From positions 6,818 to 70,817 of the forward strand of contig JABICL010000030.1 of NCBI GenBank assembly GCA_018652265.1: 64,000 nt of DNA, read 5' to 3'. Origin of the DNA: Candidatus Peribacteria bacterium. Its GTDB lineage: Bacteria > Patescibacteriota > Gracilibacteria > Peribacterales > Peribacteraceae. The position numbers were made by a program, and so were the translations under genes. Each line of letters opens with the position of its first letter. Position 1 is the first letter of the stretch. The notes under the pieces are model-generated. The model was not told the DNA's origin. It searched no databases and saw only the letters and a list, made by a program, of their open reading frames with translations. Shown one piece after another: positions 4,311 to 59,268 of the stretch.

Positions 4311-4328
4311 ATATGGTACAATTTCAAC

Positions 4329-5822
4329 ATGTTCTCAGTAAAAAAAGATGACCCATTTATAGTATTCAAGAAGCTACAGGACATCGCACGGAAAGAAGTA
4401 GGAGATGAAAACGTAATAGATCTTTCTCGTGGTGATCCTGGATTTGGATTTACACCATCTATACGAGGAAGAGAATTTGCAAGTTATGTATTACTTCTAG
4501 ATACAAGATTGAATCTAGATTCAGATAATAGATTCGCAACCAGAAAAGATGCAAAAGACTCAGATAGTATTTTGAAAAACATTAGAGATATAACTCTAGA
4601 AATTTACAAAAATGAAATAGGAGAAAAATTTCTTTCGGATCTTGATGAATTCATAGAATTTTCTATATTAGCTGCTAGAGAAGAAGGTAAAAATTGGGGG
4701 AAAGAAGATGTTCTGTGGGAATTATTTTCATATGCCGCTATGAGCGGAGGTTCATATTTAAATCCTCGCGGACAAGAACTTACTAGAATAATCACAGCTG
4801 CGTGGCATAGATCTGAGCTTGAAACAAATATATCTAGTAGAGACATAATACTTACAAACGGCGCAAGTCACGCAATAGGAACAATTTTTAAGGCGCTTGG
4901 AGAAGAGGGTAATGGATATTTAAAAAGAGGAGACAGTGTTGCAATTGCTTCCCCTGTGTATTCGCCTTATAACAGGATAATAGAAGAACGTGGACTTATA
5001 CCTATTCCCTACACTATGGATCCACTAACTGGAGAATTATCAAATCTTCAAGTAGACAAGAAGCCAAAAGCAATAATTCTGATAGATCCAAACAATCCAA
5101 CTGGATTCTCCCTTTCACAAGAATCTCTAAATGCACTTGCAAAATTTGCAAAGGATTCTAATTCTTTAATCATTACAGATGAAGTTTATTATTCTTTCTT
5201 TCCTCACAAAGAAACAATGATAAAAGTAGCTCCAGAAAGAACAATCTGCATAAATGCCAGATCAAAAACAGAAAGAAGCACAGGTCTTCGCTCTGGAGAA
5301 ATAATAATAACAAAAGCAGGACGTGAAAATATCGCACAAATGATAGGACTGTCTGATGCAGCATCTCTAGAGCAATTACTAATGTTCTCTAAGGCACCAG
5401 GCAGAACAGGTGGCCAATTCCAGCACACCACATTTGTGCCTGGCCCATCACAACTGCTTGGAATATCACATATAGCTCTAGGACGAGAAGAGCGTGAAGA
5501 ATATATGAAGAATCTTCAAAACAATCGTGATACTTTTTGCAAGAGCCTAAATCTTCCACACAAAAATAATACTTATTACATAATCTTTGATCTGGATTCA
5601 ATTGATGGATGTACGACTAAAGATTTACCAATCGAAGATAAGCTAATACTTCTTGCAAAAGCAGGAGTTGTTTTTATTCCTGCTTATAGATTTTTCGCAG
5701 AAGAAGATAGAGATAAACCAGGAGTACTCACATCTGTACGCGCTTCCATAGTAAACACTACACCTGACAAACTAAAAGAGGCCGGGGAAAGGGTTAAGAA
5801 AGTTTTGTGCATGTCATGCTGA
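4329..5822 (+). CDS. PLP-dependent aminotransferase, class I/II (long-armed, possibly aspartate 4-decarboxylase-like)
   Basis: 497 aa; LIDPNNPTG and SKTERSTGLRSG (PLP-Lys region) signatures; TACAAT 6 nt upstream of ATG; last codons MSC-stop come from repeat A copy 2. Confidence 0.85.
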   Translation: MFSVKKDDPFIVFKKLQDIARKEVGDENVIDLSRGDPGFGFTPSIRGREFASYVLLLDTRLNLDSDNRFATRKDAKDSDSILKNIRDITLEIYKNEIGEKFLSDLDEFIEFSILAAREEGKNWGKEDVLWELFSYAAMSGGSYLNPRGQELTRIITAAWHRSELETNISSRDIILTNGASHAIGTIFKALGEEGNGYLKRGDSVAIASPVYSPYNRIIEERGLIPIPYTMDPLTGELSNLQVDKKPKAIILIDPNNPTGFSLSQESLNALAKFAKDSNSLIITDEVYYSFFPHKETMIKVAPERTICINARSKTERSTGLRSGEIIITKAGRENIAQMIGLSDAASLEQLLMFSKAPGRTGGQFQHTTFVPGPSQLLGISHIALGREEREEYMKNLQNNRDTFCKSLNLPHKNNTYYIIFDLDSIDGCTTKDLPIEDKLILLAKAGVVFIPAYRFFAEEDRDKPGVLTSVRASIVNTTPDKLKEAGERVKKVLCMSC

Positions 5823-5900
5823 GCCGCACTGAGCGAGCTGAACTTGAAGCAGAGCGCAGCGACGCTTAAGTTCTGCGAGTCGAAGTGCGTGTCGAAGCAT
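5811..5900 (+). repeat. Repeat family A, copy 2
   Basis: 90 bp, supplies the stop codon of the aminotransferase; lies between convergent aminotransferase and frr. Confidence 0.9.
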
Positions 5901-5907
5901 GTTTCAA

Positions 5908-6450
5908 TCAAACCTGCATAATATCCTCCTCCTTTGACTTAGAAATTTCCTCTAATTCTTTATTTGCTTTATCTACTTCTTTTTGAAGAGCAGTTTCAAA
6001 ATCCCTGTGCTCATCTTCACTTCTACTTTCGTCTCTTTTCGAATTAGAATGAAATTCCTGACGCTGTTGTCTTACAGAAATCCTAGCTTCTTCTGCTAAT
6101 TCTTTAACTATCTTTACTATTTGCAAGCGCCTTTCTTCTGTCATTGGAGGCAAATTCAACCTAATTACAACACCATCATTAACAGGATTTACTCCTATGT
6201 TTGCATCACGAATAGCAGATTCTATCTGCTGCATTACGCCCTTATCCCATGGCTGTATAACTATAGTACGAGCATCCTGGATGCTAATACCTGCAACACC
6301 TTTTAGGGGCTGCTTTTGACCATATGCATCAATCATAATACCTTCTACTAAAGAAGCAGATGCTCTACCTGTCTGAAGCTTTGCATATTCCATCTTTAAA
6401 TGTTCTGTGGTTTTCTGCATGCCTTTCTTAAAAAGATTTATATCACTCAT
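5908..6450 (-). CDS. frr: Ribosome recycling factor
   Basis: 180 aa, full-length RRF-like sequence (..VNPVNDGVVIRLNLPPMTEERR..); TAAAAT 6 nt upstream of ATG. Confidence 0.95.
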   Translation of the reverse strand: MSDINLFKKGMQKTTEHLKMEYAKLQTGRASASLVEGIMIDAYGQKQPLKGVAGISIQDARTIVIQPWDKGVMQQIESAIRDANIGVNPVNDGVVIRLNLPPMTEERRLQIVKIVKELAEEARISVRQQRQEFHSNSKRDESRSEDEHRDFETALQKEVDKANKELEEISKSKEEDIMQV

Positions 6451-6487
6451 AGTTGTATTTTAGATTATTGGAAGCATTATTCCAACA

Positions 6488-6551: not shown

Positions 6552-7262
6552 CTATGGCATCACTTTTGTCCCTACCTCCTCACCTTTTACAACTTTCAAC
6601 AAATTCCCCTTTTTACCAAAATCGAAAATAATCAACTTCATTCCCTGATCACGACAAAGGCTAAGTGCTGCTTGATCCATTACCTGCAAATTCTTTTCTA
6701 TGGCATCTTGCAGAGTTATAGAATCATATTTCTTGGCATCTTTGTTCGTATTTGGATCTTTATCGTAGACTCCATCTACATTTGTAGCCTTCAGTATCAC
6801 ATCACAATTAAGCTCAAGAGCCCGAAGAGCTGCAGCTGAATCAGTAGTAAAATATGGATTTCCGGTTCCTCCAGCACATATTATTACTCTCCCCTTCTCT
6901 AGATGCCTAACTGCACGCCTCCTTAGATATGGTTCTGCAAGTTGTGGAACATCTACAGCAGAACAAACTCTAGTCATAGCACCATTTGATTCTAATGACG
7001 CCTGCAAACCTACTGCATTCATTATGGTTGCTAGCATTCCCATTGCGTCACTTGCTGTTCGTTCTATTCCAGCCTCCTTTTTGTCACGATATCTCCAAAT
7101 ATTTCCTCCGCCTATAGTTACAGCTACTTCAACGCCTTCTTTCATTACAGAAATAATCTCTTCGGAGATATTAGCAATAGCCTCATCATCCAATCCATAT
7201 TCATTGTTTCCAGAGAGAGCTTCTCCGGAAAGCTTTAGCATTATTCTTTTGTATTTAGACAT
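6552..7262 (-). CDS. pyrH: UMP kinase
   Basis: KRIMLKLSGEAL and GGGNIWRY motifs; ORF-track N-terminal 42 aa is read-through of repeat B; ATG 7262 has TGcTACAAT 7 nt upstream. Confidence 0.93.
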   Translation of the reverse strand: MSKYKRIMLKLSGEALSGNNEYGLDDEAIANISEEIISVMKEGVEVAVTIGGGNIWRYRDKKEAGIERTASDAMGMLATIMNAVGLQASLESNGAMTRVCSAVDVPQLAEPYLRRRAVRHLEKGRVIICAGGTGNPYFTTDSAAALRALELNCDVILKATNVDGVYDKDPNTNKDAKKYDSITLQDAIEKNLQVMDQAALSLCRDQGMKLIIFDFGKKGNLLKVVKGEEVGTKVMP

Positions 7263-7312
7263 TGGGGAGATTGTAGCATATATGGCTGTGCCACGTGGTA
7301 ACGCTTGAAACT

Positions 7313-7500: not shown

Positions 7501-7582
7501 ATACCTTTAGTATTATTAATATTCCAGAGAATTATACACACCTATAGTGATCTTTCTTACTCAAATTGCTATAATTTAGCTC

Positions 7583-7993
7583 ATGGAGATTACCCCAGAA
7601 CAAAAACAGGATATAGACAAGAATAAGGACGTCGCAGCAATGGGCTATTTATGGATAATGTCCGTAGTAGTTCTGTATGCAAGAAAAGATTCTCCATTTA
7701 TTCAATATCATGCAAGACAGGGGCTTTGGCTTTTTCTAGTCAGTATTCCTGTATGGCTAATACCTGGAATTGGTAAGTATCTAGAATTTTTCATACTTGC
7801 TGGAATGATCATAGGATTTATAAATGCTGCACAAGGTAATTATCATGATATTCCGATTGTTGGACAACTTGCAAAAGGATCTCTTACGCTACACGAAATA
7901 TGGAAAAAAGTTGTAGGAGCAATTGGAAATGCATTTGGCGTTTTCAAAAAAGGCGTCAAAAAACCAGACGATAATAAAAATGTAGATAATTGA
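7583..7993 (+). CDS. Small membrane protein, DUF4870-like
   Basis: 136 aa, 3 TM, YHARQG motif typical of that family (from memory); TGcTATAAT 7 nt upstream of ATG. Confidence 0.5.
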   Translation: MEITPEQKQDIDKNKDVAAMGYLWIMSVVVLYARKDSPFIQYHARQGLWLFLVSIPVWLIPGIGKYLEFFILAGMIIGFINAAQGNYHDIPIVGQLAKGSLTLHEIWKKVVGAIGNAFGVFKKGVKKPDDNKNVDN

Positions 7994-7995: not shown

Positions 7996-8370
7996 CTACT
8001 TATCCAATATCCCCTTCACGCTTTCTATAATCTTCGCAAAAGGTGCGTTTGCTTTTACCATGTAATCCGTAGCACCTAAAGATTTGGCCTTCTCTATATC
8101 TTCATCTTGTCCCAAATTAGAAAGAACCATCACAGGAGTATCTGTATGGCCAGAACCTTTCAGGAACATAAGAAAGTTAAACCCATCCATTCTAGGCATA
8201 ATTACATCTAGCAAAATCAAGTCGAAACTCTCTTGCTCTATTAACTCACTAGCTTCTTTTCCATCTTCAGAAATAGAAACTTGATACCCCTCCGACTCCA
8301 GCTTTATCTGTAAAGCATGAGAAAGCGCTTTTTCATCCTCAACTACTAATATGTGTTTTTTATCACTCAT
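7996..8370 (-). CDS. Stand-alone response-regulator receiver domain (CheY-like)
   Basis: 124 aa; VVEDE, LLDVIMPRMDG, ..KA.. receiver signatures; TATAAT 7 nt upstream of ATG. Confidence 0.9.
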   Translation of the reverse strand: MSDKKHILVVEDEKALSHALQIKLESEGYQVSISEDGKEASELIEQESFDLILLDVIMPRMDGFNFLMFLKGSGHTDTPVMVLSNLGQDEDIEKAKSLGATDYMVKANAPFAKIIESVKGILDK

Positions 8371-8412
8371 ACCAAGTATTATACCATTTTTAGACCTTAA
8401 TAAAAAGATGTT

Positions 8413-12370: not shown

Positions 12371-12763
12371 TTAGAAAATGAACACATCTGCATGCTCTTC
12401 TATTCTTTGTTTTGATTGCCATAACATATCTATAAGCCCCTTCATTTCTACTGACTCGTCATCCTCTTCTCTGGCATGAAAATCCATAATTCTATCTAGA
12501 AGAGATGCAATATTGGGAATAGCTTGATCTGTTTTTGCTCTAAGTTCGTCATCTAAAGAATCATAAATATCATCATTTATAAAGCTTGATGGCTTCTTGG
12601 TATCTATCTTTCCATCATCTATCAGAGAAATTACAGTTTTCAGAAAATTCTCATATTCGTCAGTTAGCTGCACTGCCTGAGGCTTTCCAAGCTGTTCCTG
12701 CTTTTCCTCTGAAGGATCCTGTCCAGAGTGTTTTTTGATAGCTTTAGCAAAATCATCTGCCAT
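12371..12763 (-). CDS. Acidic hypothetical protein (130 aa)
   Basis: ORF with TGcTATAAT 7 nt upstream of ATG (leaderless architecture). Confidence 0.55.
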   Translation of the reverse strand: MADDFAKAIKKHSGQDPSEEKQEQLGKPQAVQLTDEYENFLKTVISLIDDGKIDTKKPSSFINDDIYDSLDDELRAKTDQAIPNIASLLDRIMDFHAREEDDESVEMKGLIDMLWQSKQRIEEHADVFIF

Positions 12764-12782
12764 ATCTTGTATTATAGCACAT

Positions 12783-14819
12783 GTGGGACTTGCAAACGAG
12801 ATAACAATCCGGCACTTAAAAACAACCGATACTTACATCGAGGCTCTAAATGAAATTGGAATAAGAAAAATAGAAGATCTGATTCTATATCTACCACGTG
12901 CGTATGAAGACCTTTCTCAAATGCAAAAACTTGCAACTGCGCAAGAAGGAGACAAAGTAACTATCAGAGGAACCGTAAGTAATTTAAAACTTGTAAGAAC
13001 AAGGACCGGAAAGAAATTGGTACAAGCAGATTTCACAGATACAGATGGAACTGTGTGCAAAGTAGTTTGGTTTAATCAGCCACATATAAAGAGAATGCTA
13101 TCAGATGGAGAAGACATCGTACTCACTGGAAAATTGGTTCGAACAGGTAAAAAATTCACATTACAAAGCCCTGTATTTGAATCAGGTAATCGTGAAATGC
13201 TTCTTCATTCTGGTCGTATAGTTCCTGTATATCCACAGCATGATGTAATAACTACTAGATGGCTGAGGGAGAAAATGGCACTTGTTAAAAATGTTATAAG
13301 TGATCTGCCGGAAACGTTACCAGAAGAGTTGATAAGTGGTCAGTGGTTAGTGGCTAGTGGTCAGTCGAAGGATCAGAATGAGGAAAGTAAGAAGCTTATG
13401 CCAAGAAATGAAGCAATAATGCAGCTGCACTTTCCTGAATCTGGTGAACTTTTGAAACAAGCACAAGACAGAATATCTTTTGAAGAGCTTTTTAATCTGC
13501 AACTAATTGCGCTTAAAAGAAAACAAGAATGGCAAGCAGAATCTCAGGATAGAATAAAAATTCCTATGAACGTAGAACTTATAAAATCATTTTTTGCTTC
13601 TCTTAAATTTACTCCTACAGATAGCCAAAGAATTGCAATCTATGAAATATTGAAAGATCTAGAAAAGCCAGTGCCTATGTCTAGGCTTCTGGAAGGAGAC
13701 GTAGGATCAGGTAAAACACTAGTTGCAACTGCAGTTATCGCAAATGTGCTCTATTACAACGGACAATGTGCTCTTATGGTTCCTACAGAAGTTCTCGCCA
13801 AGCAGCACGCTGCAAATATAACTAAACTTCTAAATAAAACATGTGTTGCTCTTCTTACTGGGTCTACCCCGAAGAAGGAGGCACAGGAAATAAAACTAGG
13901 CCTTGCTCGTGGGACTATAGACGTAGTTATAGGTACGCATTCACTTATACAGCCAGATGTGAAATTTAAGGATCTTAGATTCGCAGTAGTAGATGAACAG
14001 CATAGATTCGGTGTAGAGCAGAGAAATAAATTAAAAGCCAATGGCTCTCCACATTTCCTATCTATGACTGCTACTCCTATTCCTCGAACGCTAGCTCTCA
14101 CTGCATACGGAGATCATGATCTATCTGTACTGCTCGAAAAGCCTGGAAACAGAAAGTCTATTAAAACAAAAGTAGTTTCACCGAAAGATCGTCGCACAGT
14201 AGAATTATTTATAGATAAAGAAATAGAAGATGGCCGGCAGGCATATGTAATCTGCCCACTTATTACAGAAAGTGATGAACTCGCAGAAGTAAGAAATGTA
14301 ACTTCAGAAGCAAAAAGATTAAAAGAAATATTTCCACGTCGAAATATTGCACTACTTCACGGAAAGCTTACTCCAAAAGAGAAAGATGAAATCATGGGAG
14401 AATTCAAAGAGAAGAAATCAAACATTCTAGTTTCTACCTCTGTAATAGAAGTAGGAATAGATGTTCCAAATGCATCTATAATTCTTATAGAAGGATCTGA
14501 ACGCTTTGGCCTTTCCCAACTTCATCAATTACGTGGTCGTGTAGGACGAGGAGATCATCAGAGTCATTGTTTTTTGTGTACTACAGACGTCGCACAAGCA
14601 AGCTCACAGAGACTGAAGGCTATGGAAAAATTCACTGATGGGTTCTATTTGGCGGAAGTAGATCTAAAGCTAAGAGGTCCTGGCGAGTTGTATGGAACCC
14701 GCCAGAGCGGCATGCCGGAGATTCGAGCCTCCTCACTCACTAATCCTGAGCTGGTTGTAAGAGCGAGGAGGGCGGCGGAATTGTTTCTTGATAAGAAAGA
14801 GGCTCTAATAATCAATTAA
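12783..14819 (+). CDS. recG: ATP-dependent DNA helicase RecG
   Basis: Wedge domain plus SF2 helicase: GDVGSGKT, VVDEQHRFG, ..QLRGRVGRG; start set to GTG 12783 (TATTAT 7 nt upstream) instead of ORF-track 12735, which overlaps the divergent gene. Confidence 0.9.
   Translation: MGLANEITIRHLKTTDTYIEALNEIGIRKIEDLILYLPRAYEDLSQMQKLATAQEGDKVTIRGTVSNLKLVRTRTGKKLVQADFTDTDGTVCKVVWFNQPHIKRMLSDGEDIVLTGKLVRTGKKFTLQSPVFESGNREMLLHSGRIVPVYPQHDVITTRWLREKMALVKNVISDLPETLPEELISGQWLVASGQSKDQNEESKKLMPRNEAIMQLHFPESGELLKQAQDRISFEELFNLQLIALKRKQEWQAESQDRIKIPMNVELIKSFFASLKFTPTDSQRIAIYEILKDLEKPVPMSRLLEGDVGSGKTLVATAVIANVLYYNGQCALMVPTEVLAKQHAANITKLLNKTCVALLTGSTPKKEAQEIKLGLARGTIDVVIGTHSLIQPDVKFKDLRFAVVDEQHRFGVEQRNKLKANGSPHFLSMTATPIPRTLALTAYGDHDLSVLLEKPGNRKSIKTKVVSPKDRRTVELFIDKEIEDGRQAYVICPLITESDELAEVRNVTSEAKRLKEIFPRRNIALLHGKLTPKEKDEIMGEFKEKKSNILVSTSVIEVGIDVPNASIILIEGSERFGLSQLHQLRGRVGRGDHQSHCFLCTTDVAQASSQRLKAMEKFTDGFYLAEVDLKLRGPGELYGTRQSGMPEIRASSLTNPELVVRARRAAELFLDKKEALIIN
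13335..13369 (+). repeat. Heptad block AGTGGNN x4 (+1) in-frame inside recG
   Basis: agtggtc agtggtt agtggct agtggtc agtcgaa encoding SGQWLVASGQS. Confidence 0.85.
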
Positions 14820-15730: not shown

Positions 15731-16219
15731 TCAAGAGATGGAGCTAAATTCTGTCTTATGCATTAGAGACCCATATATCGCAAGTCCTAGGGCATCTGCG
15801 GCATCATCTGATGTGCATTTTTCACCCAACGTAATTTCTATCATATCCTGCATTTGCTTCTTATCTGCATGCCCATCACCAGTAACTGTGGACTTAAGCT
15901 CAAGTGGAGCTGGTTCGATTATTGGAATTCCTGCACTTTCTAAACTCACAATAATCACTCCCCTAGCCTGCGCTACATCTATAGCAGTTTTTCTATTTAC
16001 CTCGAAATAAAGTTTTTCAACCACTGCAAGATCTGGTTTGTATTTTTTTATAACTTCACAAAGATCACTTTGTATTTCTAATAGACGACTTGGCAAACTT
16101 AAACCTTTTTTAGTTTCGATAGTAAACCAATCTATTAATTCATATTCACCAGGATTATCTGAATCAATAATTCCTATTCCTACAGTAGCAAGGCCAGGGT
16201 CGATACCTAATACTCTCAT
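15731..16219 (-). CDS. ruvC: Holliday junction resolvase RuvC
   Basis: MRVLGIDPGLATVG.. RNase H-fold resolvase N-terminus; start set to ATG 16219 (TATCAT 7 nt upstream). Confidence 0.92.
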   Translation of the reverse strand: MRVLGIDPGLATVGIGIIDSDNPGEYELIDWFTIETKKGLSLPSRLLEIQSDLCEVIKKYKPDLAVVEKLYFEVNRKTAIDVAQARGVIIVSLESAGIPIIEPAPLELKSTVTGDGHADKKQMQDMIEITLGEKCTSDDAADALGLAIYGSLMHKTEFSSIS

Positions 16220-16257
16220 TGGCACAATGATAGCCTAAATAATGTTGATACAAACCA

Positions 16258-16390: not shown

Positions 16391-16447
16391 TCTCTAATAA
16401 CCACAAATCCACATATTTGTAATCCAGCTATCAGCTACAATACCCCC

Positions 16448-17506
16448 ATGTCTGAAGCTCTGACATTTCTACTTTATTCAACAACAATCTGCCTCCTGCT
16501 TCACATGCTCGCATGTGCAGTATTTCCAAATTTCAAACTACTAGATAAGCCAGAAAAATATGGACTCAAAAGAAAGCCTCTTCCATATCCAACGGGCATA
16601 GCATCCGTAATTGCATTTATTTTGATGTTCACCGTTGCTCAGACTCCCCTATCTTTTCAAGCAAAAGGACTATTGCTAGGAATTGGTCTACTCACATTCA
16701 CTTCGATAATAGATGATATAAAAAGTCTTCCAGCCTGGGCAAGGCTACTTATTCAAGCACTAATCGCATTTATAATATTTGCAGCAGGCACTCGCATTTA
16801 TACAATCACAAATCCACTTGGAGGAATAATAAAACTAGATACTATAGACATTCATCCAGCACTACTCACTACTCACTACTCACTACTCACTAAGATAGGA
16901 CCTCTTCCATTCGCAAGTGGTCTTTTCACAATAGCTTGGCTTCTTCTCACTACTAATTCGTTCAACTGGCTAGATGGCATACCAGGACAAGTAAGCATTC
17001 TCTCTTTTATAGGAGGAATAACACTTGGAATACTTGCGCTAAGCTCTAGAGTAGATCAACCAGAGATTGCTATAATTTCTTTTATAGTCGCAGGAATCGC
17101 ACTTGGTAGTGCTGTTTTCGATCTACCTCCAAACAAAACTGTAATGGGAGATACTGGAGCAATGTTTTTTGGACTCATGCTTGGAACAATAAGTATTTAT
17201 GCAGGAGGAAAAGTAGCAACTGCTTTGCTTGTAATGGGAGTGCCACTTATCGATGCAGCACTAGTAACAACTAAAAGGATTATAAAAGGTAGATCTCCAC
17301 TAAAAGGAGGAAGAGATCATCTTCATCATATGCTTATAGACAATAGGCAATGGACTGAATCTCAAGTAATACTTCTTACAGCAGCACTTGGAACTTCATT
17401 TGGAGTTTCTGCATTATTTATGAGCACATTAGGAAAATTTGCCGCCATCGTATTACTTGGAATTGTAATGCTGCTTATCACTAGATATGCATCTAAGAAA
17501 AACTAA
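16448..17506 (+). CDS. Polyprenyl-phosphate HexNAc-1-phosphate transferase (MraY/WecA family)
   Basis: 352 aa, about 10 TM; NWLDGIPGQ and MGDTGAMFFG motifs; TACAAT 6 nt upstream of ATG. Confidence 0.85.
   Translation: MSEALTFLLYSTTICLLLHMLACAVFPNFKLLDKPEKYGLKRKPLPYPTGIASVIAFILMFTVAQTPLSFQAKGLLLGIGLLTFTSIIDDIKSLPAWARLLIQALIAFIIFAAGTRIYTITNPLGGIIKLDTIDIHPALLTTHYSLLTKIGPLPFASGLFTIAWLLLTTNSFNWLDGIPGQVSILSFIGGITLGILALSSRVDQPEIAIISFIVAGIALGSAVFDLPPNKTVMGDTGAMFFGLMLGTISIYAGGKVATALLVMGVPLIDAALVTTKRIIKGRSPLKGGRDHLHHMLIDNRQWTESQVILLTAALGTSFGVSALFMSTLGKFAAIVLLGIVMLLITRYASKKN
16860..16894 (+). repeat. Perfect heptad tract (CACTACT)x4 + cactaag inside the transferase gene
   Basis: Read directly; encodes LLTTHYSLLTK. 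Confidence 0.95.
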
Positions 17507-20230: not shown

Positions 20231-20552
20231 CATATCTAAGAGTATTCCCTCTTCTTAAATATATAAGAGATAAACTGTCTTCTGTAAGTTCTGAAATCGA
20301 GTATTTGAAATCCTCGTCATCCCCAGACACAATCAAGTATATCTCGTTCACAAAACTTTCGACCACAAAAGGTGCAGAGGAAATTAATTCCTCATCATAG
20401 ATATCTTTTTTCACATCACCCTCGAAAACTATCTTGCTACTGCTATCATCAGTGGAAATCCATTCTCCTTGAATGAGGTCAGATAAATTTTGATTGTCTG
20501 ATGTACAACCGATTGCCAATAAACAAAATATTAATATAAAAATTCTCTTCAT
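20220..20552 (-). CDS. Small lipoprotein
   Basis: 110 aa; lipobox LLAIGC at residues 11-16. Confidence 0.6.
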   Translation of the reverse strand: MKRIFILIFCLLAIGCTSDNQNLSDLIQGEWISTDDSSSKIVFEGDVKKDIYDEELISSAPFVVESFVNEIYLIVSGDDEDFKYSISELTEDSLSLIYLRRGNTLRYVRK

Positions 20553-20602
20553 GAAGAGAGTGTATCATCAATTTTAATAACCAAAACTGATATACTAAAA
20601 TC

Positions 20603-21214
20603 ATGCCCACAGCAGATGACATTTATATACACTGCGATGAGCTAGATAATATTCCTCCAATCTGTAAGAAGAATTGGGAGTTTGAAATCTCTCTGCTTGC
20701 GACAAAGCTAAAGCCGAATGCAAAGGTATTACAAGTTGGTTGTATGGATGGGACAAGAATTATTGCACTACTAAATACTAGACCAGATCTCGATATAACC
20801 GGGTTAGATATCGAGCAGAGCATGGTGGATAGCTGTAATGCTAATCTGGAGAAAGTTGGGAAGAAAGCCACTGTGATTCTGGGAGATATCACAAAACCAG
20901 TTCCAGTATCTGATTTTGATTATGTAATTTGTCTAAACAACACACTTGGATATATCCCCGATCAAGAAGCATCACTTAAGAATATGAAAAACTTAGGAGA
21001 AAAAGTAATCATCTCAGTATTTGGAGAAGGATTTGATGATGAAATTTCAAAATCATATTTCACATCTATCGGACTTACAGTTCAGTCTATAGATGGAGAT
21101 ATGTTTGTGATGGATGATTTCGTAAATGTACTTAGATATTCAAAAGATGTTGTAGACAACTGGGATGGGAAAATAACATACACTCCGCTTGGGTATTTTT
21201 GTGAGATTGGATAA
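20603..21214 (+). CDS. Class I SAM-dependent methyltransferase
   Basis: Motif I VLQVGCMDG; TATACT 6 nt upstream of ATG. Confidence 0.75.
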   Translation: MPTADDIYIHCDELDNIPPICKKNWEFEISLLATKLKPNAKVLQVGCMDGTRIIALLNTRPDLDITGLDIEQSMVDSCNANLEKVGKKATVILGDITKPVPVSDFDYVICLNNTLGYIPDQEASLKNMKNLGEKVIISVFGEGFDDEISKSYFTSIGLTVQSIDGDMFVMDDFVNVLRYSKDVVDNWDGKITYTPLGYFCEIG

Positions 21215-21221: not shown

Positions 21222-21476
21222 CTACTTCCATTCTCCATTTATTAGCTTCTCTTTCTTTTCTCTAGTCCATTTCTTGATTTGCAACTCTCTTTTTCTTGCT
21301 TCAGATTTTCCAATAAATGCATCTGAGGCATAAACAAGTTCAAAGGGCCCCTGATTAATTGCAAATCTAGAACCTTTTCCTGAGTTATGTTCTCTCATGC
21401 GCTCTTCTGCATTCGTTGTAATGCCAACATAATATCTTCCAGTATTTGCACGAGCTATGTAAACAAACCATGCCAT
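21222..21476 (-). CDS. GIY-YIG nuclease family protein (small, UPF0213-like)
   Basis: 84 aa; FVYI..GRYYVGITTN..R..EHN pattern; TATGAT 8 nt upstream of ATG. Confidence 0.85.
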   Translation of the reverse strand: MAWFVYIARANTGRYYVGITTNAEERMREHNSGKGSRFAINQGPFELVYASDAFIGKSEARKRELQIKKWTREKKEKLINGEWK

Positions 21477-21513
21477 GATAAGTAATCATAACATCTTTTG
21501 TGATCTTTCTATT

Positions 21514-21703: not shown

Positions 21704-21851
21704 TTAATGTAAATGATATACGATTCTGTGCTTCCTGTATTCTACGATGCGAAGATGGAAGCTGCCTGCCGGCCTTAATCCATGAAATACTACGAAAAAC
21801 AGAGCAAAAAAGCTACATGTTTTGTGGATAATATTGGAGTATAATCCAATT

Positions 21852-22106
21852 ATGGATAAAAAAGTCCTCCACAATAAGCTTAATTTCACAGTTATATGTC
21901 AACCAGCAAAAGAAGGTGGATACACTGTCCATGTGCCTGCACTGCCAGGATGTCACACACAAGGAGAAACAATGGAGGAAGCTGAAAAAAATGCAAAGGA
22001 AGCAATCGAGTGTCACTTGCTTGCCATGAAAAAGATGGGAGAAGCAGTTCCAGAAGAACAAGTTGGTGCAAAAATATTCACAATAGAACTAAACTTGGAA
22101 GACTAA
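21852..22106 (+). CDS. hicB: HicB-family antitoxin
   Basis: YTVHVPALPGCHTQGETMEEA.. (UPF0150/HicB fold); TATAAT 6 nt upstream of ATG 21852; stop overlaps hicA start (TAATG). Confidence 0.8.
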   Translation: MDKKVLHNKLNFTVICQPAKEGGYTVHVPALPGCHTQGETMEEAEKNAKEAIECHLLAMKKMGEAVPEEQVGAKIFTIELNLED

Positions 22107-27110: not shown

Positions 27111-27129
27111 GATTTCCATAGAATTTACC

Positions 27130-27516: not shown

Positions 27517-27530
27517 TATATAATGTATTC

Positions 27531-33487: not shown

Positions 33488-33548
33488 GAAACCTGATTGT
33501 AGCAAAAACAACCACTACTGCGCTACTCTCCTGCCTTCCTAATACACC

Positions 33549-39170: not shown

Positions 39171-39187
39171 GCTTTTACTTTAGCATT

Positions 39188-39709: not shown

Positions 39710-39863
39710 TTGATGGATTCTATCAAAATTGCAAATTAGCGACAGTCCAACTTTCGCTCTTGGTGGCTTGCCAGCCGAAGTCGTAGCGGATCGTTCAGGA
39801 TAAACTTCTCATGTTCAATCACATATAATCGCGGCGTAGTCCGCCATGGCGGACGAAGCCGGA

Positions 39864-40637: not shown

Positions 40638-40712
40638 GCGGGTATCGTATAATGGCTATTATGACGCCTTGCCATGGCGTAGATACGGGTTCAATTCCCG
40701 TTACCCGCTCCA
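40638..40712 (+). tRNA. tRNA-Gly (anticodon GCC), CCA encoded
   Basis: Anticodon stem ACGCC/GGCGT, loop TTGCCAT; T-loop TTCAATT. Confidence 0.88.
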
Positions 40713-40806: not shown

Positions 40807-40917
40807 TAATTGGCGTACTATCTAACACAAACCTCAATTTGGAAAGATTGAAGCTTTTTGGTGTTGGATTTTTATTTAGATATCACTTTATACATTGAAA
40901 TCTAAGAGTAAAATCGA

Positions 40918-43898: not shown

Positions 43899-44909
43899 TC
43901 AATCATCCCCTTCCACACTTATAGGATCCTGGAAGTTGTTATCTGCTTCCTGAACAGTTCTAGGACGAGGACGGAAACCACTCTTGAGCTTAAGCTGTAA
44001 AACAGCATTCGTGTTCTTTATAGACTTTCTGTAGGAAGTATTAACTCCTCTCCTGAGAAGAGCATTGCCAGTTTGCCTGGAAATTCTAGATGATGATCTA
44101 GATAAAGATTTATTTCTCTGATAATTACGATATTCCACTAGATATTCACATCTTTCTGTCCATGAACTTCTAGGAACTTTCGCACAGTTATTATTTTCCA
44201 CATATCTCCTTATCCTTGCCTCTTCGGATCTACTAAGAGAATCTGATCCTGGACCGTCTTCATCAAATTCTTCTACATCGACTCCAGCACTTTCAGAATA
44301 AGAGCTATCACCTGTAGTTTCAAAACGGCTCGTATCTATAGGGGCAACTCTTCTACTGCTTACCCTTCTATTTACAGCCCTAGTTCTGCGCCCAATTCTT
44401 CTTCTTGCCAAAGCCTCTTTTGTTTTGGAATCTTTTTCTCTAAGCAAATAAATACATCTTTCATATTCTGCTGTCTCGAGGCCATCACTTTCACAATTAT
44501 CATTTCTTACATAACCCTTTATACGACTCTCTCTGTTATTGTCTAACTCTTCAGACCCAGGACCATCTGGATTGAAAACTGTGCTACCTGTTTGAACTGC
44601 TACTGTTTTATTAGGTAATTTTAATCGTTCACTCGTTGTTCTACGTCTTAATTGCATTCTCCTATCTCTTCTGGAAAGATTTTGACATTGCCTTTCCCAA
44701 TCTAAATATTCATACCTTACTTCTTGTTCATCAGACAAATTTCTAGGAATAGATCCACTATTTAGGTATCTCTTAAATCTAGCCTCAGTGTGAGTGTCTA
44801 ATGCATCTGATCCAGATGGTGCAACATCGCAATTAACTTCTGCTGCATTTACCTGAACAGTTCCAATAAAAATAAAGGTTATTATAAAAAGTGTTTTTAC
44901 ATTTCTCAT
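43899..44909 (-). CDS. Secreted Arg-rich protein built from three about 100-aa repeats
   Basis: Signal peptide; repeats each with PGS(D/E).L....E(A/S)R(I/F)(K/R).Y(V/L).N..C...ERC.YL; TAGAAT 7 nt upstream of ATG. Confidence 0.6.
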   Translation of the reverse strand: MRNVKTLFIITFIFIGTVQVNAAEVNCDVAPSGSDALDTHTEARFKRYLNSGSIPRNLSDEQEVRYEYLDWERQCQNLSRRDRRMQLRRRTTSERLKLPNKTVAVQTGSTVFNPDGPGSEELDNNRESRIKGYVRNDNCESDGLETAEYERCIYLLREKDSKTKEALARRRIGRRTRAVNRRVSSRRVAPIDTSRFETTGDSSYSESAGVDVEEFDEDGPGSDSLSRSEEARIRRYVENNNCAKVPRSSWTERCEYLVEYRNYQRNKSLSRSSSRISRQTGNALLRRGVNTSYRKSIKNTNAVLQLKLKSGFRPRPRTVQEADNNFQDPISVEGDD

Positions 44910-44968
44910 AAAACAAATTCTAACACATTAGTATGTTTTTGTACTGCTATTACAACCTTTGGCTCTGC

Positions 44969-45928
44969 CTAGCGCAATCCAACTGACTTTCTTACTCTAT
45001 CCATAGTCTTTTCTGCAATTTTCCTAGCTTTTGCAGCGCCATTCTTTACAACTTCTTTTGCAGACTCATCCGAAATTTCCAATCTCTTCTTTCTCATATC
45101 ACCAAAATAATTGAAAAATTCTTCTGCTAACATTTTCTTAGCATCACCATATCCAAGTCCCCCAGCACGATACTTATCTTCCAATTCTTTCTTACCATCA
45201 TCATCCAAAAACAAAGAATGTATTTTGAATACATTGCAGTTTTCTGGATCTTTTGGCTCTTCTACTCCTTTTGAATCCGTAACTATTCCCATAATTATTT
45301 TTTCTGTCTTCTTGTCATCTGCAAAAAGTGGAATCGTATTTCCATAACTCTTACTCATTTTTCTGCCATCCGTACCTGGAACTACTGCAACATCTTCTCG
45401 TATCTGAACATCTGGCTCTTTTAGAACTCCATCTCCATATGCATTATTAAATTTCTGAGCTATATCACGAGTCATCTCTATATGTTGCTTCTGATCTTTT
45501 CCTACAGGAATCAAATCCGAGTCATATAACAAGATATCCGCAGCCTGCAAAACAGGATAAGCAAAGAGGCCATGATTTGGCTCTAAGCCTTGTGCAAGCT
45601 TATCTTTGTAACTCACTGCTCTTTCAAGTAACCCCATAGGAGTAATACAAGAAAGAATCCATAAGAGCTCTGCATGCTCTGGAACATCTGATTGAAAAAA
45701 CAGAATTCCTTTCTCTGGATCAAAACCACAAGCAAGAAGATCTTTTACTAGATTCATTCTGTATTCCCTTAATTCATTTGCATCACGAACAGAAGTAAGA
45801 GCATGTAAATCTACCACTATATAAATATTCTCTTCTTCTCCCATTAATTCTATATTTGGCTTTATAGAACCAAAATAATTTCCGATATGTGGATCGCCTG
45901 ATGGCTGCATTCCTGATAGTACTCGCAT
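44969..45928 (-). CDS. trpS: Tryptophan--tRNA ligase
   Basis: PHIGNYFG (HIGH) and KMSKS motifs; TACAAT 6 nt upstream of ATG. Confidence 0.93.
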   Translation of the reverse strand: MRVLSGMQPSGDPHIGNYFGSIKPNIELMGEEENIYIVVDLHALTSVRDANELREYRMNLVKDLLACGFDPEKGILFFQSDVPEHAELLWILSCITPMGLLERAVSYKDKLAQGLEPNHGLFAYPVLQAADILLYDSDLIPVGKDQKQHIEMTRDIAQKFNNAYGDGVLKEPDVQIREDVAVVPGTDGRKMSKSYGNTIPLFADDKKTEKIIMGIVTDSKGVEEPKDPENCNVFKIHSLFLDDDGKKELEDKYRAGGLGYGDAKKMLAEEFFNYFGDMRKKRLEISDESAKEVVKNGAAKARKIAEKTMDRVRKSVGLR

Positions 45929-45977
45929 GAGCGGATTGTATCATATGCAACAGAAAAGCGACTAACAGTACAAGCCT

Positions 45978-47306: not shown

Positions 47307-48032
47307 TCAAGAAGCCAAAATAGCGCCCACAAAGAATGCAAGCGCTGCACTTACAGCCCCAAGCACCAAAAGCTCCATTGCCCCAGAAAACTTCCTTCTT
47401 TTGGCAATTGACGATCTTACAATCCCCAGAGCAATCAAAGCCACTCCTGTAGACAAAATTGCGGTTTGAAATTTCAAATCAGATGAAACGCCAAAAATAT
47501 ACGGCACCAAAGGAATTGCACCGAAAATTACAAAAGATACAAAGGTAGCTGTGCCATGCAGCACAGGAAACTCAGTAATATCAGGCGTAAGACCGTGCTC
47601 CTCTCTCATCATAGTATCTATCCAGACATCTTCATCTGAAGTAATTTTATTTACCACCATCTCCAAATCCCCTCCTTCGAATCCTTTCTTTGCAAACATT
47701 TCCATAACCTCCTCTCTTTCTATCTCTGGAATTTCACGAATCTCTTTTCTCTCCTCCTCGTACAGTCGGTGGTAATTATCTCTTTCTGATTTTATAGAAA
47801 GATAATTTCCAATTCCCATAGAGAGTCCATCTGCAAACAAATTCGCAACTCCAAGAATTATGACTATATAGTGAGCAAGATCTGCTCCAGCAGCTCCTGC
47901 TACCACTGCAAAAGTAGTAACTATTCCATCTACACCTCCATAAACAATATCCTGCAAAAACTCCCCTAGTCTACTGCCATGGTAGTCAGCCTCCTTGTGT
48001 GCAAGTAACTTGGCGCTTGGCGAAAACCTCAT
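47307..48032 (-). CDS. VIT1/CCC1-family iron/manganese transporter
   Basis: 241 aa; [12 protein letters not shown] motif, cytosolic Glu-rich helix bundle, 5 TM; TACAAT 8 nt upstream of ATG. Confidence 0.8.
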
Positions 48033-48050
48033 GAATCTGAATTGTACACC

Positions 48051-50973: not shown

Positions 50974-51426
50974 TCATTTAGAGGAACGAATCTCCGCTAA
51001 TCTCTCTTTTGTAAGACATCGACTCAATTGTTCATCAACCTCTTCTCTAGTCATATTTCCTGCATCCACTATGAATTGATCTACAGAGCCTGAATCAATA
51101 TCTCTTGATGGGAATTGTCTCTGCAAACCTTTCATAGCACTTTTCCACGCTAACGTTGCACCATTATTGGCAACGCCAGCATCCTCTTCCTCTGCCACAT
51201 CAAGACGAAGCCTGATCAATTCGAGTCTGGCCTCTTCAGAAGTCTGAGTTATTCTTTCTCCAGTATCCAGTCCGGCAATCCTTATATAAGATTTCAGATG
51301 CGAATCACTCGTGCGTTTTGCGCGCTCATGTATATCACTTAGCGCATCTAATAAATATATAGAATCGTCCCCATTACAATCATTGTTTCCCATAATAACT
51401 TTTAGTAAAAAATAAAATGTTGTCAC
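50974..51426 (-). CDS. Hypothetical protein (150 aa)
   Basis: ORF; GTG start with GGAGGT 9 nt upstream (one of the few SD-like sites) or ATG at codon 12. Confidence 0.5.
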   Translation of the reverse strand: MTTFYFLLKVIMGNNDCNGDDSIYLLDALSDIHERAKRTSDSHLKSYIRIAGLDTGERITQTSEEARLELIRLRLDVAEEEDAGVANNGATLAWKSAMKGLQRQFPSRDIDSGSVDQFIVDAGNMTREEVDEQLSRCLTKERLAEIRSSK

Positions 51427-51723
51427 ACAAAAATACCTCCGACCTTTACAGGGGAGGTGCTTGTGAGACTAGTTCTTGTTTAGGTTACACACATCGGCAC
51501 TCTCCCTCTGTAAAGAAGGAAAAGAAGAAGCCAAAAAAGAAAGTGTTCCTTTGCAAGATGCGATCAATTTAACACCATGAGAGAAAATGTCAACTTTATG
51601 AAAGATATTTTTACAAATCCTGATAGTATCAGACTACAGCTCTGTTGTACTTATGTGATGACCCCGCCTCCAGAAATGGAGTACATCACGGACAGTGCAG
51701 CAGAGCTATTTTTTCAGTAACTT

Positions 51724-51819: not shown

Positions 51820-52315
51820 TATTAATTCCCTCCACAAACCACGGAGCATATTCCTGTGAGTTATTTTCCATATCTGTGAGCAACTCCTCTACTTTTACCC
51901 ACTTCCACTCAGATACCTCTGCAGGATCTGCGGAAATTTCAACCTCATCAACTTCTCCTACCAGAATACTCAAATACTCATGTTCAGCACCTTTTCCACT
52001 TGAATCCTCTGCAAAATAAACAAAATTCCCAGCTAACTTCAGATTAGAACAAGTAAATCCCATCTCTTCATTTAACCTTCTTTTTGCAGTCACAATCACA
52101 TCCTCACTCTCTACTTCATGACTACAGCACGTATTAGCCCAAAATCCACCCCATAGCATTTTCTCATCGGATCTCCTCTGCACCAGAAGCTCTGTGCCCG
52201 AATTTCTAAATATATACACAGAGAATGCCTTATGCAGCAATCCTTCTTTATGAGCTTTCACTTTTTCACAAACTTCTATGTTCTCTCCCTGTTCATTACA
52301 AATAATCACATTCAT
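51791..52315 (-). CDS. idi: Isopentenyl-diphosphate delta-isomerase, type 1 (Nudix fold)
   Basis: LHKAFSVYIF, WANTCCSH, Nudix-like EE region; start set to ATG 52315 (TATATT 7 nt upstream). Confidence 0.85.
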   Translation of the reverse strand: MNVIICNEQGENIEVCEKVKAHKEGLLHKAFSVYIFRNSGTELLVQRRSDEKMLWGGFWANTCCSHEVESEDVIVTAKRRLNEEMGFTCSNLKLAGNFVYFAEDSSGKGAEHEYLSILVGEVDEVEISADPAEVSEWKWVKVEELLTDMENNSQEYAPWFVEGINSASTRTSSH

Positions 52316-52375
52316 TGTTGACAATATACATGAAGCAGGAAGATACTTTTCGCCTTAATTTAACCTATTCATAAC

Positions 52376-52921: not shown

Positions 52922-53075
52922 TAACTTCCTGTAATACGGCTTCGCAATATAAATACCATTTATTTTTTCGTAGAAATACTAATAACAAAGTGTCGATATC
53001 ACTTCGCCGCCATTAGGACTGCAATACTCACAACTAAAATAGTTTTTTAATCGGAAAATCATATAAAATACCCAC

Positions 53076-53954
53076 ATGTCACGAGTACCCGAATTTTGTA
53101 GCAAAAATGGAATCCAACTAAACAAAGGCTTAGGACAGAATTTTTTGGTAGATGAAGCTGTACTACAAAAGATATTAGAGACTGCAAATATAAAAGATAG
53201 TGACTTCGTACTCGAGATAGGTGCTGGAATTGGAGTTTTGACTTCTGAACTTGTAAAAAGAGCAGGAAGGATTATGGCTGTAGAGATAGATGGGAAGCTG
53301 GTTCCTTTGATAAATAAATATGTAAACACTCACGAGCTCTCCTCGAGTGAGTCCGCCAGCGGGCGGGCGAATCGAGAGGCCGCCTCTCCACTCGTCCTTC
53401 GACAAGCTCAGGAATCGGTCGAGGAAAGCAATAAGCTGAATATTATTAATGCAAATGCATTGGAAGTTGATTTTCCAAACGAGCCTTACAAAATAGTCGC
53501 AAACATTCCATATCACATAACATCCCCTCTACTTCGTCATGCATTTTTGGAATCAGAGGTTTATCCAAAATCTATGACACTACTAATACAACACGAAGTA
53601 GCAGAAAAAATTTGTGATGAGAAAAGCAAAGGCATGCTTACGATCTTAGTCGGACTATTTGGTAAACCTACACTTATACAAAAAGTCCCACCAGAAGCAT
53701 TCCTTCCTCCACCAAAAGTAAATTCAGCAATTCTTCACATCGATTGCTTCGATTCCCCTATCGCAACTAAGGAACAAATAGAAAAAATCTTCCAGCTCAC
53801 AAAAGTAGCATTTGGGAAAAAGAGAAAAATGCTTAGAAACTCCATAGGAGAAATAGATGGAGGTATGGAAATACTAGAGAAAGCTGGAATTGAAGCGACA
53901 AGGAGACCACAAGAGCTTTCTATTGAGGAGTGGATTAAATTGGCTAACCAATAA
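53076..53954 (+). CDS. rsmA: 16S rRNA (adenine1518/1519-N6)-dimethyltransferase
   Basis: GQNFL, EIGAGIGVLT, NIPYHITSP motifs; TAAAAT 6 nt upstream of ATG; repeat C copy 3 in-frame. Confidence 0.92.
   Translation: MSRVPEFCSKNGIQLNKGLGQNFLVDEAVLQKILETANIKDSDFVLEIGAGIGVLTSELVKRAGRIMAVEIDGKLVPLINKYVNTHELSSSESASGRANREAASPLVLRQAQESVEESNKLNIINANALEVDFPNEPYKIVANIPYHITSPLLRHAFLESEVYPKSMTLLIQHEVAEKICDEKSKGMLTILVGLFGKPTLIQKVPPEAFLPPPKVNSAILHIDCFDSPIATKEQIEKIFQLTKVAFGKKRKMLRNSIGEIDGGMEILEKAGIEATRRPQELSIEEWIKLANQ
53329..53429 (+). repeat. Repeat family C, copy 3 (in-frame in rsmA)
   Basis: gagctctcctcgagtgag..ctctccactcgtccttcgacaagctcaggaatcggtcgaggaaag; encodes ELSSSESASGRANREAASPLVLRQAQESVEES. Confidence 0.88.
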
Positions 53955-57572: not shown

Positions 57573-58314
57573 GCTTGCTCACAACCTCTTCTACCAGCTT
57601 CTTCATAAGCCCATTTATTTCTGCAATCTCGGATTCCTTGGCTTTTAGTGTCCCCTCTTCTGTATAGAGTCCATGATTTACCTCTATCTGAATTCCAGGA
57701 ACCAGGAAGTGAGGGATTCGCTTTCTGTGACAGTGTCTGCCTAAAATATATCTACCACTATATGGATCATTTATAGATACGCTATAACCGTGACGCTCAA
57801 AGAAATCACGGAAAAATACTGTGTGCTCGCGAGTGCATGAGGTCCAATTCACATTTCCTAGATTTATATCTTTACGAGGCTTGCCTTCATCTGGCTTTCC
57901 TGGAGGGCCTACTGGAGTATAGCTATGGCAATCGATTAAAAATCTTGCATCTGCCATATAGGCATCTATCTCTGCATGAAAAGGATCATGATATTTCTTT
58001 ATAAGACTTTCAAATTGTTTTTCTGTTGGTTCAATTTTGTATATCTGCTCTCCATTCCAAGTTTTATGAACCATCACACCATCTTTACCTCCTTCGTATT
58101 CTTTACTTATATCATCAGGTGCTCGATTAACATCCAAAAGCACGCGAGAGACACCTTCACTCTTTACAGTATAGGCATCAGGGATTTTATATATACGATC
58201 TGTATATAGATCAGAATAAGGGAACAGCTCTTCTTCCGAGAGAAGTACATTCTCTTTCAGTTCTTCTGGGATACTGAACGAATAGTGCGGTAATGACAGA
58301 ATTATTGGATGCAC
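57559..58314 (-). CDS. N-formylglutamate amidohydrolase family protein
   Basis: LSLPHYS.., LLDVNRAPDD, LIDCHSY, DINLGN pattern; GTG start. Confidence 0.65.
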   Translation of the reverse strand: MHPIILSLPHYSFSIPEELKENVLLSEEELFPYSDLYTDRIYKIPDAYTVKSEGVSRVLLDVNRAPDDISKEYEGGKDGVMVHKTWNGEQIYKIEPTEKQFESLIKKYHDPFHAEIDAYMADARFLIDCHSYTPVGPPGKPDEGKPRKDINLGNVNWTSCTREHTVFFRDFFERHGYSVSINDPYSGRYILGRHCHRKRIPHFLVPGIQIEVNHGLYTEEGTLKAKESEIAEINGLMKKLVEEVVSKLIPS

Positions 58315-58378
58315 GGTTTAATAATGTTTATGGCTATAAGCATTCCCCGTTCGCCACGGCGGATAAACTAAGTGGGAG

Positions 58379-59215
58379 TTACTTGGATATTTTGAATTTG
58401 TTTTCGAATAATTTTTTGGCAGGTATTACAACTGTGCTATCACCACTTTTTATAACAACACCTGTAATCAAGAATTTTACGATTTCCCCCTTAATGTCAC
58501 ATTCACAATCTATATGATCTCCTATTTTCAAATGTGATTTAAGCTGCATACATGTAATAGCATTTTCCAAAAATGGCTTAGCAGCGAGTGCGCCTGCAAA
58601 ACTGATAGCAATAAATAGTATTGCGAGTATTCGTGCTGCATTCATAGTAATTACAGATACATCGAAACCTATTTGCTGCAATGCAATCAGACAAACAAAT
58701 ATTACTATAACCACCTGTACTACGGCACCAAGCAATTCAGCATATGAAATTCCTGCCTTAGCACAAAAAGTAGAAACAACGTCCCGTAAAAACCTTCCAA
58801 GAATTAAACCTATTACAAGTATAAATAGTCCGACTATAAGATGTGGAATATATGAAACTATTGCACCTATCGCATCAGACACAGCTCCAAGCTGGAGAAT
58901 ATCTGTTATAAGAAGTAGTGCAGCTAAAATTATTAACCAATAGATCAAAAAACAAAAAATACTAGATACACTTCTCTTTATTCCTACCATTCTTAGCATT
59001 CTGTCTACATTTACCTTGTTTGCAATTTTATCTAGACCCAAAACATCAAAAATATGCTTCACAAGTTTGCATGCAATACGTGCAACTATAATGCTCACAA
59101 TGAGCACCAAGAGTGCAAGTATTATTTGCGGAACCACTTCTACAATTTTGTCTGATGTTTGAGATAAAAGTTCAGAAGTTGTTTCTGAGAGCTGCTTTTT
59201 CATAGCGGAAAACAT
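58379..59215 (-). CDS. Membrane protein with conserved-TM-helix repeats (MscS-associated type)
   Basis: 278 aa; repeated TM helix + ..LGLDK../..AGISYA.. loops; TGcTATAAT 7 nt upstream of ATG. Confidence 0.5.
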   Translation of the reverse strand: MFSAMKKQLSETTSELLSQTSDKIVEVVPQIILALLVLIVSIIVARIACKLVKHIFDVLGLDKIANKVNVDRMLRMVGIKRSVSSIFCFLIYWLIILAALLLITDILQLGAVSDAIGAIVSYIPHLIVGLFILVIGLILGRFLRDVVSTFCAKAGISYAELLGAVVQVVIVIFVCLIALQQIGFDVSVITMNAARILAILFIAISFAGALAAKPFLENAITCMQLKSHLKIGDHIDCECDIKGEIVKFLITGVVIKSGDSTVVIPAKKLFENKFKISK

Positions 59216-59268
59216 ATTGTCTATTATAGCACATGGAGCAGTTTTTGTTTACCTACGATATATTTAGA

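Follow-up and report, generated by a model that had tools for sequence, protein, structure and literature searches.

Extended -10 promoters at start codons suggest widespread leaderless initiation, with no enrichment of Shine-Dalgarno sequences, in a Candidatus Peribacteria genome

The region analyzed here, referred to as the window, is a stretch of 64,000 nucleotides (nt) of contig JABICL010000030.1 (C43:6818-70817) from an uncultured Candidatus Peribacteria bacterium (assembly GCA_018652265.1), and the element in question is a -10 type hexamer, TANNNT, found a few nucleotides in front of the start codons of many of its genes, among them frr, pyrH, recG, ruvC, uvrC, trpS, idi and rsmA (Table 1). 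The assembly comprises 1,069,784 bp with 38% GC, uses the standard genetic code and is rated 100% complete with 1.1% contamination, with the caveat that it is fragmented into 48 contigs. A first-pass annotation had listed 22 such starts and proposed that leaderless mRNAs are pervasive and Shine-Dalgarno (SD) sequences nearly absent. All 22 starts, hexamers and gaps (the gap being the number of nt between the end of the hexamer and the start codon) were reproduced exactly, every start is in frame with its open reading frame (ORF), and two further sites of the same kind were found, with starts at 20552 and 39170. An extended -10 element (TGn) had been attributed to several of the 22 sites; TG is present one base 5' of the hexamer in 12 of them (TG frequency 0.063; binomial p = 1.4e-9), while a recognisable -35 element is present in three only, and the window promoters are therefore of the extended -10 class. 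The single start singled out as preceded by an SD sequence, at 51426, is genuine.

The position of the hexamer had also been used to choose between alternative starts, and curated full-length NCBIfam profiles put the N-termini at the starts chosen in this way. The pyrH profile (1-232) matches residues 4-234 of the protein if this starts at 7262, and does not fit the longer ORF from 7388, and the profiles of ruvC (1-155), trpS (4-328) and idi (1-156) align with residues 1-154, 2-318 and 3-161, respectively. The frr, uvrC and recG profiles begin within 7-12 residues of the chosen starts, uvrC from residue 9-12. At the recG locus, the divergent start 12763 (-) and the recG start 12783 (+) are 19 nt apart and their -10 hexamers overlap with an offset of 1 nt; simultaneous occupancy of both promoters is therefore probably impossible.

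For the genome as a whole 870 genes were called as stop-to-stop ORFs of at least 100 codons, selected greedily to be non-overlapping, and shifted gaps in the same sequences served as null. The distance histogram, named beforehand as a check of the proposal, has a sharp peak at 6-8 nt. TANNNT is located at a gap of 5-9 nt from the first in-frame start in 322 of the 870 genes, compared to 116-168 (about 135) at shifted gaps (p = 8e-54), and if any candidate start is considered it is found in 58% of genes, the shifted gaps giving 30%. Such a peak could conceivably be a statistical or annotation artefact of AT-rich intergenic DNA, of in-frame TAA and TAG stops, and of a start choice fitted to the rule. 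TANNNT is common at 38% GC and precedes about 30% of genes by chance when several starts are allowed, and longest-ORF starts show a slight excess of gaps of 0, 3, 6, and 9. However, the shifted-gap nulls amount to half the observed rate and gaps 7 and 8 are enriched too. The gap peak is equally seen with the non-stop hexamers TA[CT]AAT, and base 3 of the hexamer does not depart from background, so the in-frame stops do not create the signal. Counting from the motif, which is free of start choice, gave the same picture: an ORF of at least 100 codons starts 6-12 nt downstream of 76 of the 189 TGNTANAAT sites in the genome, with 22 at gap 6, 17 at gap 7, and 11 at gap 8, against 0-5 per gap outside this range apart from a small secondary rise (8 at gap 25). 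Together with the profile N-termini, which confirm the chosen starts independently, and a recG arrangement that is kept in relatives of up to 62% GC (see below), this makes an artefact an extremely improbable explanation. In-frame stops and AT-richness were each rejected as the source of the peak, which survived the shifted-gap and non-stop-hexamer controls.

The strong candidates genome-wide (n = 290) have gaps of 6 (107), 7 (82), 8 (50), 9 (39), and 5 nt (12), and their start codons are ATG (79%), GTG (14%), and TTG (7%). The usual distance from a -10 box to +1 is 6-7 nt, and modal gaps of 6 and 7 would therefore make the first base of the start codon, A or G, the +1 position. It is conceivable that the promoters are real but that most transcripts carry leaders of 1-5 nt, which ribosomes would handle unlike true 5'-AUG mRNAs. 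This would fit with the gaps of 8-9 in 89 of the 290 candidates and with gaps of 10-12 that are also above background, and the distance from the -10 box to the transcription start site (TSS) is known to differ between species (PMC12641261). On the other hand the mode at gap 6, followed by gap 7, is the one that places +1 on the start codon at the usual spacing, and the same 6-8 nt mark the experimentally supported leaderless genes of Mycobacterium tuberculosis (PMC6028130). Very short leaders as the general rule are accordingly regarded as quite unlikely.

The sequences around the hexamer have the composition of a promoter. In an alignment of 243 sites, T, T, and G are enriched at -23 to -21 from the hexamer, which corresponds to a weak -35 TTG with a 17-bp spacer, TG is found at -3/-2, and A is preferred at hexamer positions 4 and 5 (TAnAAT). 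The occurrence of the hexamer also depends on the type of gene. Among genes with a divergent upstream neighbour 66% have TANNNT at 5-9 nt (null 34%; corrected about 48%), and among same-strand genes not close to an upstream stop 56% (null 30%; corrected about 37%), whereas it is at null level in genes with a 4-nt or 1-nt overlap with the upstream stop (27%, null 25%; corrected about 0-3%). The element therefore belongs to the heads of transcription units and is not a general translation signal. Background-corrected over all genes, the share of the leaderless type is about 40%. Genes within 25 nt of an upstream stop deserve separate mention; about 18% of these (background-corrected) keep a strong -10 of their own at 5-9 nt, mostly at 6-8 nt, as seen for uvrC, and many adjacent genes may therefore be transcribed separately and not as operons.

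An alternative is that TAnAAT acts in the RNA, i.e., as an A/U-rich non-SD motif bound by the ribosome or by protein S1 in leadered mRNAs whose transcription starts further upstream, as in the genomes assigned to group B by GeneMarkS-2. A spacing of 5-9 nt would suit a ribosome binding site as well, upstream regions in this genome are generally A/T-rich and G-poor, SD sequences are not enriched, and a four-domain S1 protein is encoded, although the latter is suggestive only. A translation signal should, however, also precede internal genes, which is the group B criterion (PMC6028130), and the difference between divergent and stop-overlapping genes described above is not what it predicts. Neither does it account for the features found at the DNA level, TG one base upstream and TTG at 17-bp spacing, nor for relatives with GC-rich genomes, which keep T1, A2, and T6 of the hexamer and not a general A/U richness. 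An RNA element is thus very unlikely to explain the signal.

The near absence of SD sequences proposed for the window holds for the whole genome. The SD 4-mers GGAG, GAGG, and AGGA precede 6.9% of first starts at a distance of 4-20 nt, compared to 10.8% of random positions and 16.3% of internal in-frame start codons, and show no positional peak upstream of first starts. Similarly, SD 5-mers with a start 3-11 nt downstream were counted 773 times genome-wide against 710 at control gaps, i.e., there was no enrichment, and no gene class tested had SD sequences above chance. A non-canonical SD, GGGAG, complementary to CCUCCC, was included in the 5-mer set and rejected, as it brought no enrichment. 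The few convincing SDs in the genome, AGGAG or GGAGG located 6-9 nt before ATG, are found on GC-rich genes (45-51% compared to 38% for the genome) that encode a Gfo/Idh/MocA-like oxidoreductase, TIM-barrel sugar isomerase-like proteins, a STAS protein, and a CsrA-like protein. These genes look acquired, and they make up a second, SD-led regime of initiation.

For internal genes it had been suggested that overlapping stop and start codons take the place of the SD sequence. This is the case for 33 of the 189 close same-strand genes, whose starts lie between -20 and +25 nt from the upstream stop (a 4-nt overlap in 19 and a 1-nt overlap in 14), but not for most of them; about 22 overlap by more than 4 nt and the remainder have short A/T-rich, G-poor spacers. 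In operon-internal genes with spacers of 3-25 nt (n = 72) the upstream regions are A/T-rich, with 1-11% G against a background of 19%. First genes with a leader have short (15-45 nt), A/C-rich, G-poor leaders, e.g., aataggaaaactaaaacaaacaaaa ATG. Leaders of 20-27 nt often open with (A)GGA at the inferred +1, followed by A/C-rich, G-poor sequence of the ACAAAA type.

The 3' end of the 16S rRNA had been named as another place to look. The single 16S gene (C34:76331-77849; L001:1501-3019) ends in GGAACACCUCCCUA and its CCUCC core is intact; the missing SD use in this genome therefore does not stem from a lost anti-SD. In sister genera the situation is different. The core is altered to UCUCC or UUUCC in four of six 16S genes from the same family (Table 1), with the flanking 16S sequence nearly invariant, as would be expected if selection on SD pairing had relaxed in the clade. 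The bS21 model TIGR00030 had no hit in this genome, nor in 7 of 13 genomes searched, including five of eight other genomes of the family; a model of only 58 positions could miss a divergent bS21 and the non-detection is therefore suggestive only. Among the control genomes bS21 was likewise undetected with TIGR00030 in Thermus, Deinococcus, and Corynebacterium, all of which belong to leaderless-rich lineages. The prfB gene (contig C4, ~39,870-40,975; L076; outside the window) carries a classical CUU UGA +1 frameshift site with GGGGAAGGA 5' of it, and is itself a leadered gene with TATAAT about 38 nt upstream of GTG. The frameshift site is also kept in the relatives G014, G015, and G019. As G014 and G015 have a UUUCC anti-SD, prfB frameshifting was rejected as the sole reason for anti-SD retention.

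Table 1. Location and arrangement of promoter-start sites and the SD-type start in the window, and of SD-led genes and 16S 3' cores elsewhere
Feature	Location	Strand	Arrangement or sequence	Remark
Aminotransferase-like gene	4317..4331	+	TGgTACAAT-N6-ATG	
frr	6448..6462	-	TAAAAT-N6-ATG	TTGGAA at 17-bp spacing; profile aligns from residue 9
pyrH	7260..7275	-	TGcTACAAT-N7-ATG	Start 42 codons 3' of longest-ORF start
Unnamed gene	7570..7585	+	TGcTATAAT-N7-ATG	
Unnamed gene	8368..8383	-	TGgTATAAT-N7-ATG	
Divergent partner of recG	12761..12776	-	TGcTATAAT-N7-ATG	
recG	12770..12785	+	TATTAT-N7-GTG	Spacing kept in 46/64 relatives
ruvC	16217..16232	-	TATCAT-N7-ATG	
Glycosyl-phosphate transferase (WecA/MraY-like)	16436..16450	+	TACAAT-N6-ATG	Family-profile evidence
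Unnamed gene	20550..20564	-	TGnTACACT-N6-ATG	New site
Unnamed gene	20591..20605	+	TGaTATACT-N6-ATG	
Unnamed gene	21474..21490	-	TGtTATGAT-N8-ATG	
hicB	21840..21854	+	TATAAT-N6-ATG	Label of the first-pass annotation
Unnamed gene	27119..27132	+	TAGAAT-N5-ATG	
uvrC	27519..27533	+	TATAAT-N6-GTG	Promoter in 14-nt spacer and 3' end of upstream gene
Unnamed gene	33485..33501	-	TGcTACAAT-N8-ATG	
Unnamed gene	39168..39182	-	TGnTAAAGT-N6-ATG	New site; weaker hexamer
Unnamed gene	39707..39722	-	TGaTAGAAT-N7-GTG	
Unnamed gene	44907..44922	-	TGtTAGAAT-N7-ATG	
trpS	45926..45940	-	TGaTACAAT-N6-ATG	
Unnamed gene	48030..48046	-	TACAAT-N8-ATG	
150-aa ORF	51424..51440	-	GGAGG-N9-GTG	Sole SD-type start in window
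idi	52313..52328	-	TATATT-N7-ATG	
rsmA	53064..53078	+	TAAAAT-N6-ATG	Family-profile evidence
Unnamed gene	59213..59228	-	TGcTATAAT-N7-ATG	
SD-led GC-rich genes	Contigs C38 (strand-index 29570 and 31252), C44, C1, C9			Outside window
16S 3' core	G004 (L080), G005 (L091)		CAUCUCC	Same family
16S 3' core	G014 (L083)		CAUUUCC	Same family
16S 3' core	G015 (L086)		CGUUUCC	Same family
16S 3' core	G001		Canonical	Same family
16S 3' core	G025 (L084)		CCGCC	Other family, same class
16S 3' core	G024 (L092)		CCUCU	Other family, same class

The arrangement is conserved. Relatives of RecG (56-65% identity) are nearly all labelled Candidatus Peribacteria, Peribacteraceae or Peregrinibacteria, which places the bacterium in the Patescibacteria, and in 46 of 64 Peribacteria-type genomes (GC 40-62%) recG has TAnnnT located 5-9 nt, mostly 6-7 nt, before an in-frame ATG or GTG, against 11-21 of 68 for shifted gaps (p = 2e-11). 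The hexamers of these relatives are mostly TATACT or TACAAT, the start is typically 10 codons upstream of the tblastn match, and in the GC-rich relatives the conserved letters at recG are T1, A2, and T6. In Peribacteria loci totalling 459 kb, extended -10 sites have their maximum at gaps 7-8, a feature that was not seen in a small control set of Firmicute loci (27 kb). The pattern TGNTANAAT-N6/7-ATG occurs 37 times in this genome compared to once for a reversed-pattern control. Enrichment extends to each of the 18 further genera sampled from the family and, unevenly, to the other families of the class. An even sample of 121 genomes across the phylum yielded 2,776 matches to the N6/7 pattern against 975 for an N16/17 gap control, with a median ratio of 3; 60 of these genomes are individually significant (p < 0.01), about 20 are without excess, and the genome studied here ranks 16th. 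Judged by this signature the trait extends through the whole family and is common in the phylum.

The promoter-start arrangement is marked by its position and composition, by its restriction to certain classes of genes and by its conservation, in a genome that has no SD enrichment, and with a -10 box 6-8 nt before the start in about 40% of genes and no SD excess, most messages probably begin at AUG. From this we infer where transcripts begin, i.e., at the start codon, as well as the ribosomal route that they take. The proposal of pervasive leaderless mRNAs is in this sense supported at the level of sequence, by the spacing peak, the promoter features, SD frequencies at or below background, the N-termini, and the conservation at recG. 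We consider it probable that transcription units in this genome mainly start by an extended -10 promoter placed at the start codon, giving 5'-AUG or 5'-GUG mRNAs, and that no class of genes is SD-led. The commonest head of a unit would be an extended -10 promoter of the sigma-70 type (TGnTAnAAT) with little or no -35. RNA polymerase would start on the first base (A or G) of the start codon, or 1-2 bases from it, to give an mRNA without 5' untranslated region, and the ribosome with initiator tRNA would recognise the 5'-terminal AUG or GUG directly, SD:anti-SD pairing playing no part. This type would comprise about 40% of all genes and about half of the obligate transcription-unit heads. First genes with a leader would be initiated without SD from their short A/C-rich, G-poor leaders, and operon-internal genes would be initiated on unstructured A/T-rich RNA, or by termination and reinitiation at the 4-nt and 1-nt overlaps.

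Some observations weigh against so simple a picture. TANNNT is missing from the 5-9 nt position in about one third of the genes with a divergent upstream neighbour, many of which have a clear promoter further away, at 15-45 nt; leaderless initiation is therefore the commonest mode predicted here and not the sole one. The anti-SD is kept and a few genes have good SDs, and SD-dependent initiation is therefore probably still possible. In addition, the genes were called by an ORF heuristic of our own and not by a trained gene finder, and the estimate of about 40%, like the other leaderless fractions a background-corrected one, depends on the shifted-gap null and on accepting any candidate start in the first 50 codons.

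It is tempting to speculate that leaderless initiation is the default for unit heads across much of the Patescibacteria, and that the Peribacteraceae are midway in dismantling the SD:anti-SD system. This may be suggested tentatively, with the odds somewhat against it, because SD sequences are not enriched in any class of genes, bS21 goes undetected here and in most of the family, and the anti-SD core, elsewhere almost invariant, is intact in some genera (this one included) and has one or two substitutions in others. In the genome studied here the anti-SD may be kept only for the few acquired GC-rich, SD-led genes. If this is true, the Candidate Phyla Radiation (CPR) would be a third large bacterial clade of leaderless users, one in which loss of the SD system could be traced stepwise. 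The present finding adds a lineage with small genomes and small ribosomes to the bacteria predicted to rely on leaderless mRNAs. The order of losses (SD use, then bS21, then decay of the anti-SD) is testable by comparative genomics, using the substitutions in sister genera and the phylum-wide signature. There is a practical side to this as well. Starts assigned from the longest ORF or from SD sequences would often be wrong in such genomes, as seen for pyrH, where the difference is 42 codons, and a rule placing the -10 at 6-8 nt would give better N-termini for CPR proteins. Compared to the first-pass annotation, the analysis adds an anti-SD that is kept here and decaying in sister genera, internal and leadered genes that have A-rich, G-poor regions more often than overlaps, and the spread of the trait through the family and the phylum.

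Leaderless initiation is known from other bacteria. Genomes of GeneMarkS-2 group C, mainly Actinobacteria and Deinococcus-Thermus, have a Pribnow box 6-8 nt from the start in 25-50% of operons (PMC6028130). Zheng et al. (2011) found leaderless genes to make up 19% in Actinobacteria and 39% in Deinococcus-Thermus (PMC3160421), and a study from 2025 gave about 30% of ORFs in the latter (PMC12340547). In genomes of this type 20-46% of genes are predicted leaderless (PMC6028130; PMC3160421; PMC12340547). The present genome resembles this group, i.e., M. tuberculosis and Deinococcus-Thermus, in the position of the Pribnow box 6-8 nt before operon-first starts and in having the same TAnnnT/TAtaaT logo, and its share of about 40% of genes (48% of divergent genes) is at the top of the reported range. 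It differs in that the remaining genes of group C genomes use SD-type sites whereas no gene class is SD-enriched here, and in being a CPR/Peribacteria genome of 1 Mb with low GC and mostly extended -10 (TGn) promoters. For the CPR, a full-text search of one literature library found no paper linking these bacteria, or Patescibacteria, to leaderless mRNAs. Tsurumaki et al. (2022) described low anti-SD detection in Parcubacteria only and never used the word leaderless (PMC9297842), and for the cultured CPR bacterium TM7x 188 TSSs are listed with nothing on leader length (PMC12641261).

Bacteroidota occlude their anti-SD with bS21, bS18, and bS6. Similarly to members of this phylum that fall into group B, such as Flavobacterium johnsoniae, the genome studied here keeps the anti-SD in 16S rRNA while most genes are without SD, has A-rich, G-poor regions upstream of starts, and retains strong SDs on a few unusual genes. 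On the other hand the mRNAs of Bacteroidota are mostly leadered, with the same non-SD motif before first and internal genes, whereas here a promoter-type motif is found at unit heads only, and bS21 was not detected here in the TIGR00030 search. With the anti-SD-less subgroup of Parcubacteria (PMC9297842) it shares the CPR ancestry and a weakened SD:anti-SD pairing, with mutated cores in its sister genera, but differs in the CCUCC that it has kept. As predicted from its sequence, the mode of initiation in this genome is thus a known one, similar to that of GeneMarkS-2 group C, but combined with remaining genes that are without SD, so that first and internal genes alike lack the SD sequence while the rRNA retains the anti-SD core.

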